DNA of 38,555 bases from Clostridia bacterium (GTDB taxonomy: Bacteria; Bacillota; Clostridia; Oscillospirales; CAG-272): contig JAFXJW010000055.1 of NCBI GenBank assembly GCA_017532045.1, positions 1-38,555 on the forward strand, read 5' to 3'. Below, piece by piece: positions 11,047 to 38,555 of this stretch. Under the pieces are notes generated by a model. That model had not been told where the DNA came from. It saw nothing but the letters and a program-made list of their open reading frames with translations, and made no database searches. The translations under genes and the position numbers were made by a program. Within the stretch, counting starts at the first letter, position 1. Each line of letters opens with the position of its first letter.

Positions 11047-11072
11047 GGAGCGGGAGAGCGAGTCTCCGACGG

Positions 11073-11124
11073 CTTAAGAGCCCTTTTGAAAAAGGGTTCT
11101 TAAGAATCTCCTAAAACTTTCAAA
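11073..11124. repeat. Partial mosaic hairpin repeat, copy R1
   Basis: CTTAAGAGCCCTTTT-GA-AAAAGGGTTCTTAAG (11073-11104), then AATCTCCTAAAACTTTCAAAAAG. This aligns with 19674-19725 of copy R4. Confidence 0.7.
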
Positions 11125-11161
11125 AAGAAAACCTACCGACGAAAATCGGTAGGTTTTTTTG
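11125..11161. terminator. Bidirectional rho-independent terminator between convergent glgA and the GH13 gene
   Basis: AACCTACCGA (11130-11139) / TCGGTAGGTT (11146-11155), flanked by an A-run and a T7 run. Confidence 0.85.
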
Positions 11162-13177: not shown

Positions 13178-13389
13178 ATGCAGGGGCTTCACCCCTGCAC
13201 CCCACCTAAACCCTTTTTGCAAAACCTCCTCGCTTTGCTCGGGGCAAATTCGTCTGCGACGAAGTTTGCGAGGGTTTAGGAATCCCAAAAACCTTTAAAC
13301 AACAATGCTTTAAAAGGTTTTGGGGGTCAAGGCCCTTTTCTCAAAAGGGCTTTGCGGGGAGTGGGGCAGAGCCCCACAAACCCCAATTT
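13178..13389. repeat. Mosaic hairpin repeat, copy R2 (module order A-B(core)-C-D-E-terminal motif)
   Basis: Module A: GCAGGGGCTTCACCCCTGC at 13180-13198. Module B: arms CTAAACCCT (13206-13214) / AGGGTTTAG (13271-13279) around the 55-nt core. Module C: CCCAAAAACCTTTAAA...TTTAAAAGGTTTTGGGGG at 13284-13326. Module D: GCCCTTTTCTCAAAAGGGC at 13332-13350. Module E: GTGGGGCAGAGCCCCAC at 13361-13377. Terminal motif: AAACCCCAATTT at 13378-13389. Confidence 0.9.
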
Positions 13390-16023: not shown

Positions 16024-16229
16024 GCAGGGGTTTCACCCCTGCACCCCACCTAAACCCTTTTTGAAAAAAGGGTTTAGGAATCCCAAAAACGTTTAACAAA
16101 TATATTTTTTAAAGGTTTTTGAGATTCCAAAGAACTTCGCAAACTTTGCCGCAGGCAAATTTGCCCCGAGCGAAGCGAGGAGGTTTGCCAAAAAGTTCTT
16201 TGGTGGGGGTGTGAGGGCAAAGCCCCCAC
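16024..16229. repeat. Mosaic hairpin repeat, copy R3 (A - empty B - C - filled B with inverted core - E)
   Basis: Module A: GCAGGGGTTTCACCCCTGC at 16024-16042. Empty B: perfect palindrome TAAACCCTTTTTGAAAAAAGGGTTTA at 16051-16076. Module C hairpin: 16082-16122. Filled B: arms CCAAAGAACT (16127-16136) / AGTTCTTTGG (16194-16203) around the core at 16137-16190. Module E: GTGAGGGCAAAGCCCCCAC at 16211-16229. Confidence 0.9.
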
Positions 16230-19634: not shown

Positions 19635-19877
19635 AATTGGGGTTTGTGGGGGCTCTGCCCCCACCCCCCGCAAGGCCCTTTTGAAAAAAGTTCTTTGGAA
19701 TCTCCCAAAACTTTTGAAAACCATTGTAAAACAAGAATGTTTTAAAGGTTCTTGGGATTCTTAAACCCTCGCAAACTTTGCCGTAGGCGAATTTGCCCCG
19801 AGCAAAGCGAGGAGGTCTTGCAAGAAGGGTTTAAGTGGGGTGCAGGGGTGAAACCCCTGCCCGACAAACCCAAATTT
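19634..19877. repeat. Mosaic hairpin repeat, copy R4: full-length element with terminal inverted repeats (order E-C-B(core)-A, inverted relative to R2)
   Basis: Terminal inverted repeats: AAATTGGGGTTTGT (19634-19647) and ACAAACCCAAATTT (19864-19877). Module E: GTGGGGGCTCTGCCCCCAC at 19646-19664. Module B: arms CTTAAACCCT (19760-19769) / AGGGTTTAAG (19826-19835) around the core. Module A: GCAGGGGTGAAACCCCTGC at 19842-19860. Confidence 0.9.
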
Positions 19878-23423: not shown

Positions 23424-23473
23424 AATTGTGTTCCTTTTCAGGGTGTTTTTAGAGTATAGGCTATTTGGTTGCT

Positions 23474-23546
23474 GAAAAGATTTTGGAGATTCCAAAGAAC
23501 CTTTTGAAAAAGGTTCTTTGGTGGGTGCAGGGCAACGCCCTGCATC
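23474..23546. repeat. Mosaic hairpin repeat, copy R5 (short; empty B hairpin plus A/E-type hairpin) in the metY-metA intercistronic spacer
   Basis: Perfect 30-nt palindrome CCAAAGAACCTTTTGAAAAAGGTTCTTTGG (23492-23521), then TGCAGGGC-AAC-GCCCTGCA (23526-23544). Same arms as the filled hairpin at 16127-16203. Confidence 0.85.
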
Positions 23547-34220: not shown

Positions 34221-34435
34221 TTCAAATTGGGGTTTATAGGGCCGAAGGCCCTCTCGCCCCCACTTAAACCCTTCTTGCAAGACCTCCTCGCTTTGCTCGG
34301 GGCAAATTCGCCTACGGCAAAGTTTGCGAGGGTTTAAGAATCCCAAGACCCTTCAAAAAACATTGATGAGCCAATAACAATTTGTTAAAGGTTTTTGGGG
34401 AGTCCAGAGGGGCTTTTTGCAAAAAGCCCCTTTGG
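34221..34435. repeat. Mosaic hairpin repeat, copy R7 (terminal motif - E - B(core) - C - D)
   Basis: Terminal motif: TTCAAATTGGGGTTTAT at 34221-34237. Module E: AGGGCC-GA-AGGCCCT at 34238-34252. Module B: arms CTTAAACCCT (34263-34272) / AGGGTTTAAG (34329-34338). Module D: AGGGGCTTTTTGCAAAAAGCCCCT at 34408-34431. The segment 34258-34347 is the exact reverse complement of 19751-19840. Confidence 0.9.
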
Positions 34436-34469
34436 CCGTTCTCCATATATATCCCTCGAAAGGCGCCAT

Positions 34470-34512: not shown

Positions 34513-35706
34513 TTACAGAAGCTCTGCCTTGAGGGTCTCGGCCAGATCGGTCTGCTCCCAAGGCGCATTCAGATCCTCACGACCCATGTGACCGTAAGCG
34601 GCCAGATCGCAATAGATGGGACGGCGAAGGTCGAATCTCTTAATGATAGCAGCGGGACGGAGATCCACGTGCTTCAGAACGGCCTCCTGAATGGCGGCCT
34701 CGGAGACCTTGGCGGTACCGAAGGTGTCCACCAGGACGGAGACGGGCTTGGCCACGCCGATGGCGTAGGCGACCTGTACCTCGCAATGGTCGGCCAGACC
34801 GGCGGCCACCACGTTCTTGGCGATGTAACGGGCGGCGTAGGAGGCGGAGCGATCCACCTTGGTGGGATCCTTACCCGAGAAAGCACCGCCGCCGTGACGG
34901 GCGTAGCCGCCGTAGGTGTCCACGATGATCTTGCGTCCCGTCAGACCCGTATCACCGGCAGGGCCGCCAATGACGAACCGACCCGTGGGGTTCACGAAGA
35001 ACTTAGTGTTCTCATCCAGCAGATGGGCAGGGACGATGGGACGGATGACCTTCTCGATCATGTCCTCGCGGATGGTCTCCAGCGTGACCTCAACAGAGTG
35101 CTGGGTGGATACCACCACGGTGTCCACACGGACAGGCTTACCCTCCACGTACTCCACGGTGACCTGGGTCTTACCGTCGGGACGGAGGTAGTCCAGCTCG
35201 CCGCTCTTGCGCACCTCGCTGAGGCGCTTGGCCATCTTATGGGCCAGAGAAATGGGCAGGGGCATCCGCTCCGGGGTCTCGTTGCAGGCGTAGCCGAACA
35301 TGAGGCCCTGATCGCCGGCGCCGATGTCCAGACCGTCGTCGGTGGTTCCCTCCTTGGCCTCCAGAGACTTGTCCACGCCCATGGCGATGTCGGGGGACTG
35401 CTCGTGAATGGAGGAAATGACGGCGCAGCTATCGCAATCAAAGCCGAATTTGGCGCGGGTGTAACCGATCTCACGGACGGTCTCACGGACGATCTTCTGG
35501 ATATCCACGTAGGCGGTGGTGGTGATCTCACCCATGATGGCCACAAGGCCCGTGGTGCAAAAGGTCTCACAGGCTACACGGGACATGGGATCCTGGCGAA
35601 GCAGCTCGTCCAGAATGGCGTCGGAGATCTTGTCGGAAATTTTGTCGGGGTGACCCTCGGTCACGGATTCGCTGGTAAACAGCACGGAACGGTTGTCGTT
35701 GATCAT
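34513..35706 (-). CDS. metK: S-adenosylmethionine synthetase
   Basis: [33 protein letters not shown]. 397 aa. Confidence 0.95.
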
Positions 35707-35784: not shown

Positions 35785-35795
35785 TTCGTCTGACT

Positions 35796-35880
35796 CTCAT
35801 CAAGCAGGTATTGGCACCTTACCCCACGGGGCAGGTTGTCGTGACTTCACAGGGCCTGTCCCTCCGTCACTCTTGATAAG
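35796..35880 (-). promoter_or_regulatory. SAM-I (S-box) riboswitch aptamer
   Basis: Minus strand reads CTTATCAAGAGTGACGGAGGGACAGGCCCTGTGAAGTCACGACAACCTGCCCCGTGGGGTAAGGTGCCAATACCTGCTTGATGAG. This matches the S-box hallmarks: CTTATCAAGAG, GGAGGGA, GGCCC, GTGAAG, CAACC, GGTGCCAA and closure of P1. It lies upstream of metK, as is common in Firmicutes. Confidence 0.9.
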
Positions 35881-35895
35881 CGATTTACTTCTTTT

Positions 35896-36055: not shown

Positions 36056-36559
36056 TCAGAACAGAGCGCCGAAAGCGGCCACCACACCGTAGGAGATAAG
36101 AGTCATGACCACGCCGGCAATCAAAACACCTATGAAAACCGCCAAAAGGGACTTCCAGAACTTCATATCGAAGAGGGCGGCCACCAGCGTCCCCGTCCAA
36201 GCGCCCGTTGCGGGCAGAGGGATGGCGACGAAGAGTGTCAAGCCCCAGAATGCGTATTTTTCGATCTTAGCTCGATTCTTTTCGGCCTTTTCGAACATCT
36301 TGTTGGCAATCTTGTTGAAGAATTTGATCCTGCATTTTGCCATCCAAGTCAGCACAGACTTGACGAAGAGCAGGATGATGGGAACGGGGAGCATATTTCC
36401 GATCACGGCGATGAAGTAAGTCTGCCACCAAGGGAGGCCGAAGCCGGCTCCCAAGGGGATAGCCCCTCGCAGCTCAATGATGGGAAGCATGGAGCAGAAC
36501 AGAACGCAAAGCTCCTCTCCCACGGTTTCCAGAAAAAAGTGTGCAATAGCTTCTTTCAT
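36056..36559 (-). CDS. Small membrane protein of the putative small multidrug export family (COG2426-like)
   Basis: 167 aa, 4-5 TM. N-terminal LPIIELRGAIPLGAGFGLPWWQTYFIAVIGNMLPVP resembles that family by recall. AAAGGA RBS. Confidence 0.5.
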   Translation of the reverse strand: MKEAIAHFFLETVGEELCVLFCSMLPIIELRGAIPLGAGFGLPWWQTYFIAVIGNMLPVPIILLFVKSVLTWMAKCRIKFFNKIANKMFEKAEKNRAKIEKYAFWGLTLFVAIPLPATGAWTGTLVAALFDMKFWKSLLAVFIGVLIAGVVMTLISYGVVAAFGALF

Positions 36560-36574
36560 GGAACAATCCTTTCT

Positions 36575-37330
36575 TTATTGGGAAGCACCGAACATTTCAG
36601 TGATATTTTCAAACCAGGTAAACTCGCCCACCCAGGAGAAATCTCCGTGAAGCAGGGTCACGAACAGAATAATCACCGCCGCCAGGAACACCAGGCCGCC
36701 GATGGTCACCCACAGGGTGCGACGGGCGTTCTTTTTCTGTTGCGCGGGATCATTATGGGACTCACCGGAGGCAGACTTCGGCAGAAGCTTGGCTGCCTGC
36801 ATTGCCCGACAGACAGGCTTATAGAGGATCAACACCAGAGCGGCGTTGACCATGCCCTTAATCAAATTGAAGGGGAAGAATAATGTGGGAATCATGTCGA
36901 TGACGGCCGATCGTGGAACCTCCATGTAAAAGGGTGTCACCACCAGATTCAGAGTAAGCATGACGGCCACCAAGGCGACCACACCGGACACCAGAGCGAC
37001 GATCACTCTCGAGAGCTTCTTTTTGTTGGCATACACCACCGCGCACACGACCGAGAAGGTGAAGGAGGAGGCAAAATTCATAAGGAAGCCGTACCAACCC
37101 GTATCGCCGATCGTGATGAATTCCAGCGTCGCCACCAGCAAAGAGACGGTAGCGGCAGCCACGGGACCCAGCAAAAGGCCCGAAATGGTAATGATAGAAT
37201 CCTTCAGATCAAAGGTAAGAAACGTAACGTTGAAGCGGAATACAAACATGGCGGCAAAGGCCAACGCGGCAAAGACCGCCATCAGGACCAACGCACGCAG
37301 GCGCGCGCGCTTTTTCAAAGCAGTAGACAT
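36575..37330 (-). CDS. ECF-transporter substrate-specific (S) component; candidate riboflavin transporter given the upstream FMN-type leader
   Basis: The ATG at 37328-37330 (MSTALKKRARLRALVLMAVFAALAF) follows GGGAAAGGA. It has 6 or more TM helices in the style of ECF S-components, plus a C-terminal extra TM. Substrate is inferred only from the leader. Confidence 0.55.
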   Translation of the reverse strand: MSTALKKRARLRALVLMAVFAALAFAAMFVFRFNVTFLTFDLKDSIITISGLLLGPVAAATVSLLVATLEFITIGDTGWYGFLMNFASSFTFSVVCAVVYANKKKLSRVIVALVSGVVALVAVMLTLNLVVTPFYMEVPRSAVIDMIPTLFFPFNLIKGMVNAALVLILYKPVCRAMQAAKLLPKSASGESHNDPAQQKKNARRTLWVTIGGLVFLAAVIILFVTLLHGDFSWVGEFTWFENITEMFGASQ

Positions 37331-37337
37331 AAAATGT

Positions 37338-37575
37338 AATCCTTTCCCATCCGGACTGTGAACGTATACACGAGATGTCGGTATACGCGAAGGTCTTCTC
37401 CCTTTGCCTTCAAGGGCGAAAGTTTGCGAAGCGCAGCGGAGAAAACTTTCTGAACTCAGCAAGCTGAGTTCTACCGTCGGCGCAGGAATCTCACCTGCCA
37501 GGCACACATACCGTCGCAGCTGTGTGTTTGTGGGCTATACCACCGGTATGGAATTTCACCAATTCTCAAAGATGA
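37338..37575 (-). promoter_or_regulatory. FMN (RFN) riboswitch-like leader, apparently interrupted by a roughly 110-nt hairpin-rich block
   Basis: Minus-strand 5' part (37560 down to 37469): GGTGAAATTCCATACCGGTGGTATAGCCCACAA, then ACACACA...TGTGTG, then GCAGGTGAGATTCCTGCGCCGACGGTAGAA. Minus-strand 3' part (37357 down to 37340): AGTCCGGATGGGAAAGGA. Compare the recalled B. subtilis ribD RFN: GGGTGAAATTCCCGACCGGCGGTA..AGCCCG.., GGTGGATTCAG..CTGAAGCCGACAGTGAAAGTCTGGATGGGAGAAGGA. The J1/2 GGGG is not conserved here (GAGA). Confidence 0.55.
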
Positions 37576-37590
37576 ATAAAATAAATGAAC

Positions 37591-37646
37591 AGGAAAACCC
37601 CGCAGCAATGCGCGGGCAATGGGAGCATTGCTACGTTGCTGCGGGG
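37591..37646 (-). terminator. tuf terminator (long, branched hairpin plus U tract)
   Basis: Outer stem CCCCGCAGCAA (37598-37608) / TTGCTGCGGGG (37636-37646), inner stem GCAATG/CATTGC. On the minus strand it is followed by TTTTCC. Confidence 0.75.
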
Positions 37647-37668: not shown

Positions 37669-38555
37669 TTACTTAATGATCTCGGAAACAACGCCGGAAC
37701 CGACGGTACGGCCACCCTCACGGATAGCGAAGCGCAGACCCTTCTCGCAAGCGATGGGGGCGATCAGCTCAACAGTCATCTCAACGTTATCGCCGGGGCG
37801 GCACATCTCAACGCCCTCGGGCAGCTCGATCACACCGGTAACGTCGGTAGTTCTGAAGTAGAACTGAGGACGGTAACCAGCGAAGAAGGGCTTCTGACGA
37901 CCACCCTCCTTCTCGGACAGAACGTAAACGTTGCCCTTGAAGTTGGTGTGGGGGTTAACGGAACCGGGCTTAGCCAGAACCTGACCACGGCGGATGCCAT
38001 CCTTAGCAACGCCACGGAGCAGAGCACCGATGTTGTCACCGGCCTCAGCCTGAGGCAGCAGCTTGTGGAACATCTCGACACCGGTAACGACGGTGGTGGA
38101 CTTCTCCTCGGTGATACCGACGATCTCGACGGTGTCGTTGACCTTCAGAGTACCTCTCTCAACACGACCGGTAGCACCGGTACCACGGCCGGAGATGGAG
38201 AAGACATCCTCAACGGGCATCAGGAAGGGCAGGTCAGCCTTACGATCGGGGGTAGGAATGTAAGCGTCAACCTCAGCCATCAGCTCGAGAATAGGAGCGT
38301 ACTCAGCGGAAGAAGGATCCTTAGAGTCGGAGGTCAGAGCCTCACGAGCGGAACCACGAACGATCGGAATATCGTCACCGGGGAAATCGTACTCGGACAG
38401 CAGGTCGCGAACCTCCATCTCAACGAGGTCCAGCAGCTCCTCGTCGTCAACGAGGTCGGTCTTGTTCATGAAAACAACGATTGCGGGAACGCCAACCTGA
38501 CGAGCCAGCAGAACGTGCTCACGGGTCTGGGCGAGAGGGCCATCGGTACCTGCAA
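37669..38555 (-). CDS. tuf: Elongation factor Tu, 5'-truncated by the window edge
   Basis: The frame stays open to position 38553 ([52 protein letters not shown]...[15 protein letters not shown]). The Met at 38469 in the ORF track is internal. Confidence 0.95.

Follow-up and report, generated by a model that had tools for sequence, protein, structure and literature searches.

The locus considered here raises the question whether a riboswitch of the flavin mononucleotide (FMN) class (RFN) that is interrupted by a long, hairpin-rich block in the loop of its sixth helix (L6, at the end of P6) can still form one working aptamer. The leader in question is located on the minus strand of a contig of 38,555 nucleotides (nt) from a Clostridia bacterium (JAFXJW010000055.1, assembly GCA_017532045.1), which in its entirety is referred to as the window, and it precedes a gene for the S-component of an energy-coupling factor (ECF) transporter of the FmnP/RibU type, i.e. 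a riboflavin transporter. A first-pass annotation, made from the sequence alone, had left three options: a functional riboswitch with an unusually expanded P6, an aptamer of variant specificity, or an aptamer inactivated by insertion of a repeat. From the results below, it seems probable that the leader is a functional FMN-class riboswitch with a natural P6 expansion, which acts as a translational OFF switch for the transporter gene, and the gene for a small membrane protein directly behind the latter is probably controlled as well. Judged by its conservation among relatives, the block itself is a natural structural variant and not a repeat insertion.

Two separated halves that make up one aptamer

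Reading the minus strand over the 340 nt from the stop codon of tuf (37669) to the ATG of the S-component gene (37330), all of the segments pointed out before (P2 with L2, P3, P4, P5 and the 5' half of P6) could be located, and together with P1 and the 3' strand of P6 they provide the six helices, the conserved junctions and the L2 and L5 T-loops of an FMN riboswitch, according to the sequence alignment (Table 1; core positions follow the F. nucleatum numbering of structure 3F2Q, transferred via the ungapped Rfam alignment). The changes in P2 and P3 that had been proposed to be compensated are confirmed in this alignment, and the J1/2 junction is indeed non-canonical (GAGAAU, aligned without gaps). 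The adenines that contact the flavin are all present (A48 at 37528, A85 at 37477, and A99 at 37350 in GGAUG), and P3 is a minimal helix without P3a extension, consisting of 4 base pairs (bp; GUGG..CCAC, 37543-37530) and a 6-nt loop (L3 is 5-7 nt across the clade). The gene association is that of the FMN class as well, with a riboflavin-transport gene downstream (PF12822; PF07155/FmnP in relatives). The leader as a whole folds with -87.1 kcal/mol (z -3.46), and the hairpins of the block, P3, P4 and P5 form independently in this fold.

The search with Rfam family RF00050 that the first-pass annotation had called for gave a divided answer. At the gathering threshold (66.2 bits) no FMN match was returned for the whole window, only an S-adenosylmethionine (SAM) riboswitch, whereas under permissive filters positions 37440-37577 match with 52.2 bits (E 4e-11), i.e. 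below the gathering score; the 5' five-sixths align cleanly here, but for its 3' end the alignment is driven to hairpin A, the first of the block, and does not extend across the latter. The matching 3' half had been placed much further downstream, about 110 nt beyond the 5' half of P6 and overlapping the Shine-Dalgarno (SD) sequence at 9 nt from the ATG. This distal half is in fact the sole match in the window to the 3'-half consensus (2 mismatches, with ~0.19 expected by chance at <=3 mismatches), and its overlap with the SD is borne out; its distance from the 5' strand of P6 is much as stated, with an exact spacing of 116 nt. When the block is deleted in silico, 53 of the 66 highly conserved consensus positions are identical and all 3'-half positions match, which can be compared to the 55-56 out of 66 in relatives that pass the gathering score.

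These relatives were found by a scan with the S-component protein (one genome per species), by a metagenome scan for hairpins A and M of the block, and by looking up eight more distant homologues, which resulted in a sample of 25 loci (L-numbers below), 23 of them with a homologous gene. RF00050 recognises the same arrangement in several of them: L008 scores 74.2 bits with an alignment spanning its 120-nt block (vs 69.4 bits with a short alignment), L019, L020 and L021 score 73.8-78.1 bits with Infernal putting inserts of 22-45 nt inside L6, and L007 passes the gathering score (70.8 bits) with its 3' end forced onto the block.

The comparison of these leaders also indicates that both halves belong to one structure. 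P1, which has to form across the insert, comprises 6-7 bp in 19 of 19 leaders, with compensatory changes (A-U, G.U, U.G or C-G at one position, and U-A, C-G or U.G at another), and P4 is completely different in sequence between lineages yet always compensated. An adenine at position 47 (J3/4; 37528-37529 in the window) occurs only together with A10 in J1/2 (7 of the 11 A10 leaders versus none of the 8 G10 leaders), which fits the non-canonical tertiary pair G10-G47 known from the crystal structure (PMC12219259) and looks like covariation towards A-A. The sole position of J6/1 that varies freely is U100 (A in L013, C in L020), which is flipped out to the solvent in the crystal structure (PMC3201879). 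As far as a comparison of sequences can tell, these are the patterns expected from selection on a folded aptamer.

The block is a conserved three-helix domain

The first-pass annotation had asked whether the block is absent from related leaders. It is not: each of the 18 relatives with an aptamer has an insert (23-258 nt) at this very site of L6, and in none of them is L6 uninterrupted. Within the window's own clade the insert measures 87-258 nt, and in the more distant L019, L020 and L021 (53-60% protein identity) 23, 33 and 44 nt, respectively, with those of L019 and L020 being single hairpins; L024 has 143 nt of unrelated sequence at this site.

In the window, the block folds with -46 kcal/mol (z -5.65 versus shuffles), and in all 14 complete leaders of the clade the minimum free energy (MFE) structure consists of exactly three abutting top-level helices, i.e. 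helix A, domain M and helix Z (Table 1), followed by a tail of 3-5 nt up to AGU-CCG. Helix A has the clade consensus GAACUCRGC-NNR-GCYGAGUUC and the outer stem of domain M rAAGyUUUCUCC/GGAGAAArCUUy. The apex of domain M is a plain 10-bp hairpin in L002, L005, L014 and L007 and is branched in the other leaders, with helix A being present once more, by duplication, in the apex of L004 and L006. In relatives the base of helix Z reads CGCG/CGCG, and its apex varies with compensatory changes. It had been proposed that the block is a string of four perfect or near-perfect hairpins, and these hairpins do exist, but the covariation-backed partner of GAAAGUUUUC is the distal GAAGACCUUC and not the proximal AAACUUUC; GAAAGUUUUC/GAAGACCUUC constitutes the outer stem of domain M.

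Covariation was counted on a trimmed alignment with the hypervariable apices masked, using controls in which the 3' partners were slid. Standard pairs make up 94.8% of the cells versus 19-46% in the slid controls, a percentage that is inflated by the helices being taken from MFE folds of the same sequences, which does not apply to the count of double changes. The latter amounts to 9 pairs with compensatory changes versus 0-2 in the controls, and to 30 cells with such changes versus at most 4. One pair of helix A, for instance, is A-U in seven sequences and G-C in seven, and L007 and L023 have several further compensated positions in this helix. The pair count for helix Z is conservative, because MAFFT placed the rows of the window and L017 one column off in this helix and they were scored there as mispaired. 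With the shared insertion site, the covarying helices of the insert and a P1 that is compensated across it, the option of a functional riboswitch with an expanded P6 is supported. The first-pass annotation had also reasoned that a conserved, covarying long P6 extension in relatives would make the block a natural variable stem rather than an insertion, and such an extension is what the relatives have.

Tandem duplications are present within the P6 domain of L001 (1-195) and in the blocks of L004 and L006; in L004 and L006 helix A and the base of M are both present twice, and L001 and L004 contain repeated units ATTGAGTTTCGGCGCGGnnGACGGT, including GACGGT resembling the 5' strand of P6. The P6 domain appears to grow by local duplication. 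Hairpin A was also considered as a transcription terminator and rejected, its U-run being interrupted and 7 nt away from the stem.

Relation to the intergenic repeats

The window contains a composite intergenic repeat family of ~180 nt (13182-13364, 16041-16222, 19661-19858 and 34240-34440), with partial copies at 11070-11147 and 23473-23527. It is present in both orientations and includes palindromic units such as CCCTTTTTGAAAAAAGGG and CTCGCAAACTTTGCCG..CGAGCAAAGCGAGGAGG. A resemblance of the block to these repeats had been noted in the first-pass annotation, and an 11-mer (TCGCAAACTTT) is indeed shared, occurring at 6 sites in the window against 0.5 expected. Wider similarity is lacking, however: blastn of the block against the repeats gives at best 29 nt at 83% identity, and a profile hidden Markov model (HMM) of the repeats (nhmmer, four-copy profile) recovers all copies in the window but matches no block at E up to 10. 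The block as a copy of the repeats was thus rejected, given that only an 11-13-mer is shared and the HMM is negative.

Nor does the block behave as a dispersed element. A second copy was not found within the window by blastn-short, and terminal inverted repeats or target duplications are not present at the block. Among 241 million metagenome records, the pattern of A plus M occurs seven times, five times in the same leader before the same gene and twice as isolated chance palindromes in unrelated sequence, i.e. the A+M module was not found outside this leader. Inactivation by insertion of a repeat, the last of the three options, is therefore not supported.

The repeat HMM does find partial copies upstream of the aptamer in L007 (414-503), L012 (1387-1463), L020 (1251-1369) and L021 (1035-1097), all of them between the tuf terminator and the start of the aptamer. 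The repeats therefore colonise this intergenic region without entering the aptamer, and the P6 domain is not among them.

A variant core and its possible consequences for the ligand

By core sequence, the leaders fall cleanly into two groups. Group V consists of the window and L002-L006, L013, L014 and L016 (9 leaders, species-level genomes), and has GAGAAU in J1/2 (9 of 9), CUG in J4/5 (CUA in L004), AA or GA in J3/4, and the SD within J6/1 and the 3' strand of P1. Group C (L007, L008, L009, L012, L017, L023 and L024) has the canonical GGGGAU in J1/2 and AGA or CGA in J4/5, as have all leaders outside group V for the latter junction, and carries a separate CCCCCC/GGGG hairpin over the SD. AUCCCC of this hairpin can alternatively pair with GGGGAU of J1/2, making it a classical sequestor/anti-sequestor platform. 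In four related lineages (L010, L018, L022 and L025) the FMN aptamer is absent from the spacer between tuf and the S-component gene. Their SD is still covered by a CCYCC...GAAAGGGG hairpin, corresponding to the sequestor half of the group-C platform; repeated loss of the riboswitch has thus left a constitutive SD hairpin in place.

The core of the window's aptamer reads A10, G11, A12, G32, A47, A48, U62, G84, A85 and A99, and the guanines in contact with the phosphate and with the ribityl group are thus not intact: G11, G32 and G84 are kept, and positions 10, 12 and 62 are changed. Contacts to the ribityl-phosphate are made by G10, G11, G32, G62 and G84, whose conservation among 11,603 FMN riboswitches exceeds 97% (PMC6298564); G12 and G62 form core base triples, that of G12 being described as G12-(G93-C30) (PMC12219259). 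In the L. plantarum riboswitch, the affinity for FMN decreases ~7-fold by G12A, ~12-fold by G62A and ~50-fold by both, and a natural aptamer with A12 and A47 does not bind FMN (PMC12219259). Part of these changes is found separately in the more distant relatives, as L019 and L020 have A10 and A47 only and L021 has A12 only; group V combines them with the loss of G62. With G10A, G12A and the loss of G62, the phosphate/ribityl pocket is altered at three residues, and canonical recognition of FMN at high affinity is therefore probably weakened in group V, or replaced by phosphate-independent recognition of a flavin, for which riboflavin is the obvious candidate. The option of a variant-specificity aptamer is hereby strengthened, the odd J1/2 being part of an invariant set (A10, A12 and loss of G62), with the change of specificity itself being a candidate.

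A bolder and rather speculative possibility is that group V represents an undescribed subtype of variant FMN riboswitches, with an A10/G11/A12/U62 core (with or without A47), a three-helix P6, and a phosphate-free flavin (riboflavin or a flavin breakdown product) as its ligand, in which the L2-L6 contact is now provided by, or remodelled through, helix A and the base of M. If so, the clade would offer a stepwise specificity series, since its sister lineages with a canonical core have the same gene and the same synteny, i.e. a natural series for specificity change in riboswitches, from A10 and A47 alone, or A12 alone, to the full set.

Proposed switch

Based on the anatomy of the leader and on the literature, we infer that switching could proceed as follows. 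The 5' strand of P1, P2 to P5 and the 5' strand of P6 would be made first, after which the L6 expansion interrupts the aptamer. Hairpins A, M and Z would fold locally, one after another, as they are transcribed, and with the 3-bp P6 they may then build a four-way junction, by which the two sides of L6 are reunited. The rejoined AGU, the 3' strand of P6, J6/1 and the 3' strand of P1 would then close the six-way junction. Binding of a flavin is predicted to fix the weak P1 (6 bp, AUCUUU/AAGGAU with one G.U) and J6/1, by which the SD becomes occluded and translation repressed; without ligand, P1 would open and allow ribosomes to load. As completion of the pocket has to wait for the 3' half, with 116 nt to be transcribed in between, the switch would act on the finished leader (i.e. 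thermodynamically, at the level of translation) and not through a transcriptional race. The expansion would then be a peripheral domain that is tolerated and structurally constrained, and prone to growth by tandem duplication. The ligand is presumably a flavin, with weakened FMN recognition or phosphate-independent (riboflavin) recognition being likelier than canonical FMN sensing.

Alternative explanations

It is highly improbable that the block stems from a mobile or repeat-derived element related to the intergenic repeats, which landed in L6 and was either tolerated or harmful. Such an origin would agree with the shared 11-mer, the short blastn match, the repeats that do insert beside this riboswitch in four of the relatives, and the blocks of L001, L004 and L006 that enlarge by duplication. 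It is at odds with the negative HMM, with the confinement of the A+M module to this leader, with the lack of terminal inverted repeats and target duplications, and with an L6 insert in every aptamer-bearing relative, down to 53% protein identity. The fixed architecture of the 14 leaders, and the sequence conservation of helix A and the base of M, which equals that of P3 and P5 and far exceeds that of P4 or the apices, would rather fit a three-helix domain that is a module of its own, be it a platform for protein binding or RNase processing, or a second sensor controlling whether the aptamer closes (two-input control). This is unlikely too, as the loop of helix A is not conserved (GGA, AGA, AAA, UU), no Rfam family matches the block, and the unrelated insert of L024 and the short, plain hairpins (23-44 nt) of L019-L021 imply that no specific sequence is required at the L6 site across the wider lineage. 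Very unlikely is also a decaying riboswitch, in which the aptamer of the clade binds nothing and the leader is kept for its SD and for mRNA structure. The sub-gathering score, the lost core guanines and the complete loss of the aptamer in relatives (four times or more) point that way, but in the 9 genomes of group V (with proteins 77-82% identical to that of the window) the junctions, T-loops and P1-P6 are invariant or compensated, and compensatory changes occur in P4 and the helices of the block, whereas a neutral relic would gather disruptive changes, as the hypervariable apices did.

Plain FMN sensing, with A10, A12 and U62 only tuning the affinity and FMN still being the ligand as in the sister lineages, is a possibility to be taken into account, albeit not a likely one. 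The same orthologous gene is found in the same synteny under canonical-core FMN aptamers in group C and in L019-L021, each of the changes also occurs singly in relatives with gathering scores (A10 with A47 in L019 and L020, A12 in L021), G11, G32, G84, A48, A85 and A99 are all kept, and the single G12A or G62A mutants still bind FMN (7-12-fold loss; PMC12219259). Against this, three positions of the phosphate pocket are changed jointly and invariantly in 9 genomes, the loss of affinity is ~50-fold in the double mutant and complete in the natural aptamer with A12 and A47 (PMC12219259), and FMN is rejected by natural variants from the literature that have G-to-A changes of a similar kind (PMC6298564). 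The preferred explanation, a functional switch with a natural P6 expansion, has points against it as well. The match of the window to RF00050 is below gathering, the percentage of paired cells in the block is inflated, and the repeated loss of the aptamer means that regulation of the gene is dispensable, which makes decay conceivable. Furthermore, P6 has only 3 bp yet must close a four-way junction, the T-loop/receptor contact between L2 and L6 is presumed, the base that follows GGU in L6 varies within the clade (A, C or G), and a convincing sigma-70 promoter was not found between the tuf terminator and P1 (37580-37608, minus strand).

Comparison with known FMN riboswitches

With the canonical FMN riboswitch (RF00050; 3F2Q), the leader of the window shares the six-helix junction and the order of its helices, the L2 and L5 T-loops (GGUGAAAUUCC), ACCGG in J2/3, CCGAC in J5/6 and AGUCCGGAUG in L6/P6/J6-1, as well as A48, A85 and A99, a riboflavin-transporter gene downstream and a platform predicted to sequester the ribosome binding site (RBS). 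It differs in its three-helix L6 of 116 nt, its minimal P3, G10A, G12A, the loss of G62, and a score below gathering. The published consensus provides for a variable extension only at P3 (P3a), which about half of the members possess (PMC6298564). An extended P6 was not found in a literature search for FMN riboswitches, which is weak evidence, most subscription journals being outside its coverage.

P3a (e.g. of B. subtilis ribD) is a helix between GGUA and AGYC of the receptor loop, off the core, and the L6 insert (GGUA...AGUC) occupies the mirror-image position of P3a in L3 (GGUA/AGCC). Given this symmetry and the reported L2-L6 and L3-L5 pairs of T-loop and receptor (PMC3201879), the two sites may be regarded as structurally equivalent, with the insert pointing away from the core. 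In size they differ, P3a usually being a single hairpin, in contrast to the junction of three helices in the window's clade, which reaches 258 nt.

Among the variant FMN riboswitches, subtype 1 (Atilho, Perkins and Breaker 2019, PMC6298564) occurs exclusively upstream of COG3601/RibU-family genes, the type of gene that the leader described here precedes as well, and its P1 is predicted to hide the RBS (genetic OFF), as P1 of the window would hide the SD located in J6/1 and the 3' strand of P1. Its ribityl- and phosphate-contacting guanosines have given way to other bases, adenosine for the most part, and positions 48, 85 and 99 are kept, which is similar in kind to the window, although the latter keeps G11, G32 and G84 and has U instead of A at position 62 (compared by description only). 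Subtype 1 originates from Atopobium and metagenomes, whereas the present leaders are from metagenome-assembled genomes of gut Clostridia, and it has an extended P3 (P3a/P3b) with no reported P6 expansion, in contrast to the minimal P3 and the extension in P6/L6 of the window. Because of this extended P3, and with the exact substitution sets not compared, the leader is not filed under subtype 1. In subtype 2 (C. difficile CD3299-type; PMC6298564) guanosines of the phosphate pocket are lost as they are in the window, and riboflavin, lumiflavin and lumichrome are bound while FMN is rejected, which sets a precedent for phosphate-independent sensing. Its members are transcriptional ON switches before MFS/MATE efflux pumps, however, and have no L6 expansion.

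The leader is genuine and conserved as a structural variant within a known riboswitch class, and standard annotation thresholds fail to pick it up. FMN riboswitches represent a textbook RNA fold and are drug targets as well. That L6, which takes part in the L2-L6 contact and donates G93 to a core triple, can hold 23-258 nt of extra structured RNA is relevant to homology searches, in which the window's copy is missed at the Rfam gathering threshold, and to the engineering of split or insertion-tolerant aptamers. The gene behind the altered pocket is of the type (COG3601) that also follows the orphan subtype 1 variants. Since orthologues with a canonical core can serve as built-in controls, ligand specificity is open to direct testing. 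Should the block turn out to be functionless in itself and FMN to have remained the ligand, the leader would be an unusual but ordinary member of the known class.

The locus and its neighbouring genes

Table 1. Coordinates of the leader elements and flanking genes in the window
Feature	Positions	Strand	Sequence, description and basis
tuf ORF (open reading frame)	37669-38469		upstream of the leader; EF-Tu domains
Intrinsic terminator of tuf	37594..37646	(-)	stem CCCCGCAGCAA...TTGCTGCGGGG, then U-tract; sequence and terminator-like sites
P1, 5' strand	37568..37573	(-)	AUCUUU; pairs with AAGGAU at 37339-37344
J1/2	37562..37567	(-)	GAGAAU; consensus aGGGCa becomes A10, G11, A12; ungapped Rfam alignment
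P2 and L2 T-loop	37549..37561	(-)	UGG-UGAAAUU-CCA; Rfam alignment
J2/3, C31-G32 equivalents, minimal P3/L3	37530..37548	(-)	J2/3 UAC; P3/L3 GUGG-UAUAGC-CCAC; Rfam alignment
J3/4	37528..37529	(-)	AA (A47, A48); consensus GA
P4 hairpin	37502..37527	(-)	CACACAGC...GUAUGUGUG (CACACA..UGUGUG); folds; compensated differences among relatives
J4/5	37499..37501	(-)	CUG; consensus aGA; conserved G62 lost (U62); Rfam alignment
P5 and L5 T-loop	37482..37498	(-)	GCAGG-UGAGAUU-CCUGC; Rfam alignment
J5/6 and P6, 5' strand	37474..37481	(-)	GCCGA (C83, G84, A85 equivalents) and CGG; Rfam alignment; invariant in all leaders
L6 expansion, 116 nt	37358..37473	(-)	UA, helix A, domain M, helix Z, UCAC
Helix A	37452..37471	(-)	GAACUCAGC-UU-GCUGAGUUC; conserved sequence; covariation
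Domain M	37389..37450	(-)	outer stem GAAAGUUUUCUCC / GGAGAAGACCUUC, branched hypervariable apex; folds, covariation
Helix Z	37362..37388	(-)	GCGUAUAC...GUAUACGU; folds, covariation
L6, 3' side, and P6, 3' strand	37352..37357	(-)	AGU (G93 equivalent 37356) and CCG; AGU/AGC-CCG invariant in all leaders
J6/1 and P1, 3' strand	37339..37351	(-)	GAUGGGA (A99 equivalent 37350) and AAGGAU; sequence, 3'-half match
Shine-Dalgarno sequence	37340-37348	(-)	GGGAAAGGA; within J6/1 and P1 3' strand; ends 9 nt before ATG 37330
ECF transporter S-component gene	36575..37330	(-)	FmnP/RibU family (COG3601 type), 251 amino acids (aa); Pfam PF12822
Sm_multidrug_ex small membrane protein gene	36056..36559	(-)	PF06695; 16 nt downstream of the S-component gene, co-operonic

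The assignment of the S-component is supported by its relatives, which carry the JGI name 'riboflavin transporter FmnP' and of which many also match PF07155, the riboflavin S-component family. In 8 of the 8 loci for which gene calls were returned, tuf, leader, S-component and Sm_multidrug_ex follow each other in this order; both there and in the window, the Sm_multidrug_ex gene comes immediately after that of the S-component, which suggests a functional link of this membrane protein with flavin transport. We know of no description of such a link.

About 20 nt separate the tuf terminator from P1. The sole promoter candidate there, TTGCTG-17-TTTATT, is weak and shares sequence with the terminator's 3' arm, and L002, L003 and L005 have a better one (TTGCTG-16-TATTAT) at the equivalent place; read-through from tuf is an alternative to a promoter of the leader's own. 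Another candidate, TTCACA-18-TACATT (37362-37333), is considered to be a chance match, as transcription would start inside the ORF and the -35 is not conserved in relatives. A coding reading of the leader was likewise rejected: the mechanical 310-aa ORF starting at GTG (36575-37507, minus strand), which runs in frame through the leader into the S-component gene, is an artefact, since the block lengths in relatives (87-258 nt) cover all three residues modulo 3 and the frame is hence not conserved.

The SAM riboswitch returned for the window is of type SAM-I (RF00162, 70.3 bits; 35794-35882, minus strand) and lies upstream of metK, the S-adenosylmethionine synthetase gene (34513-35706, minus strand), an arrangement that is also present in L019 and L020.

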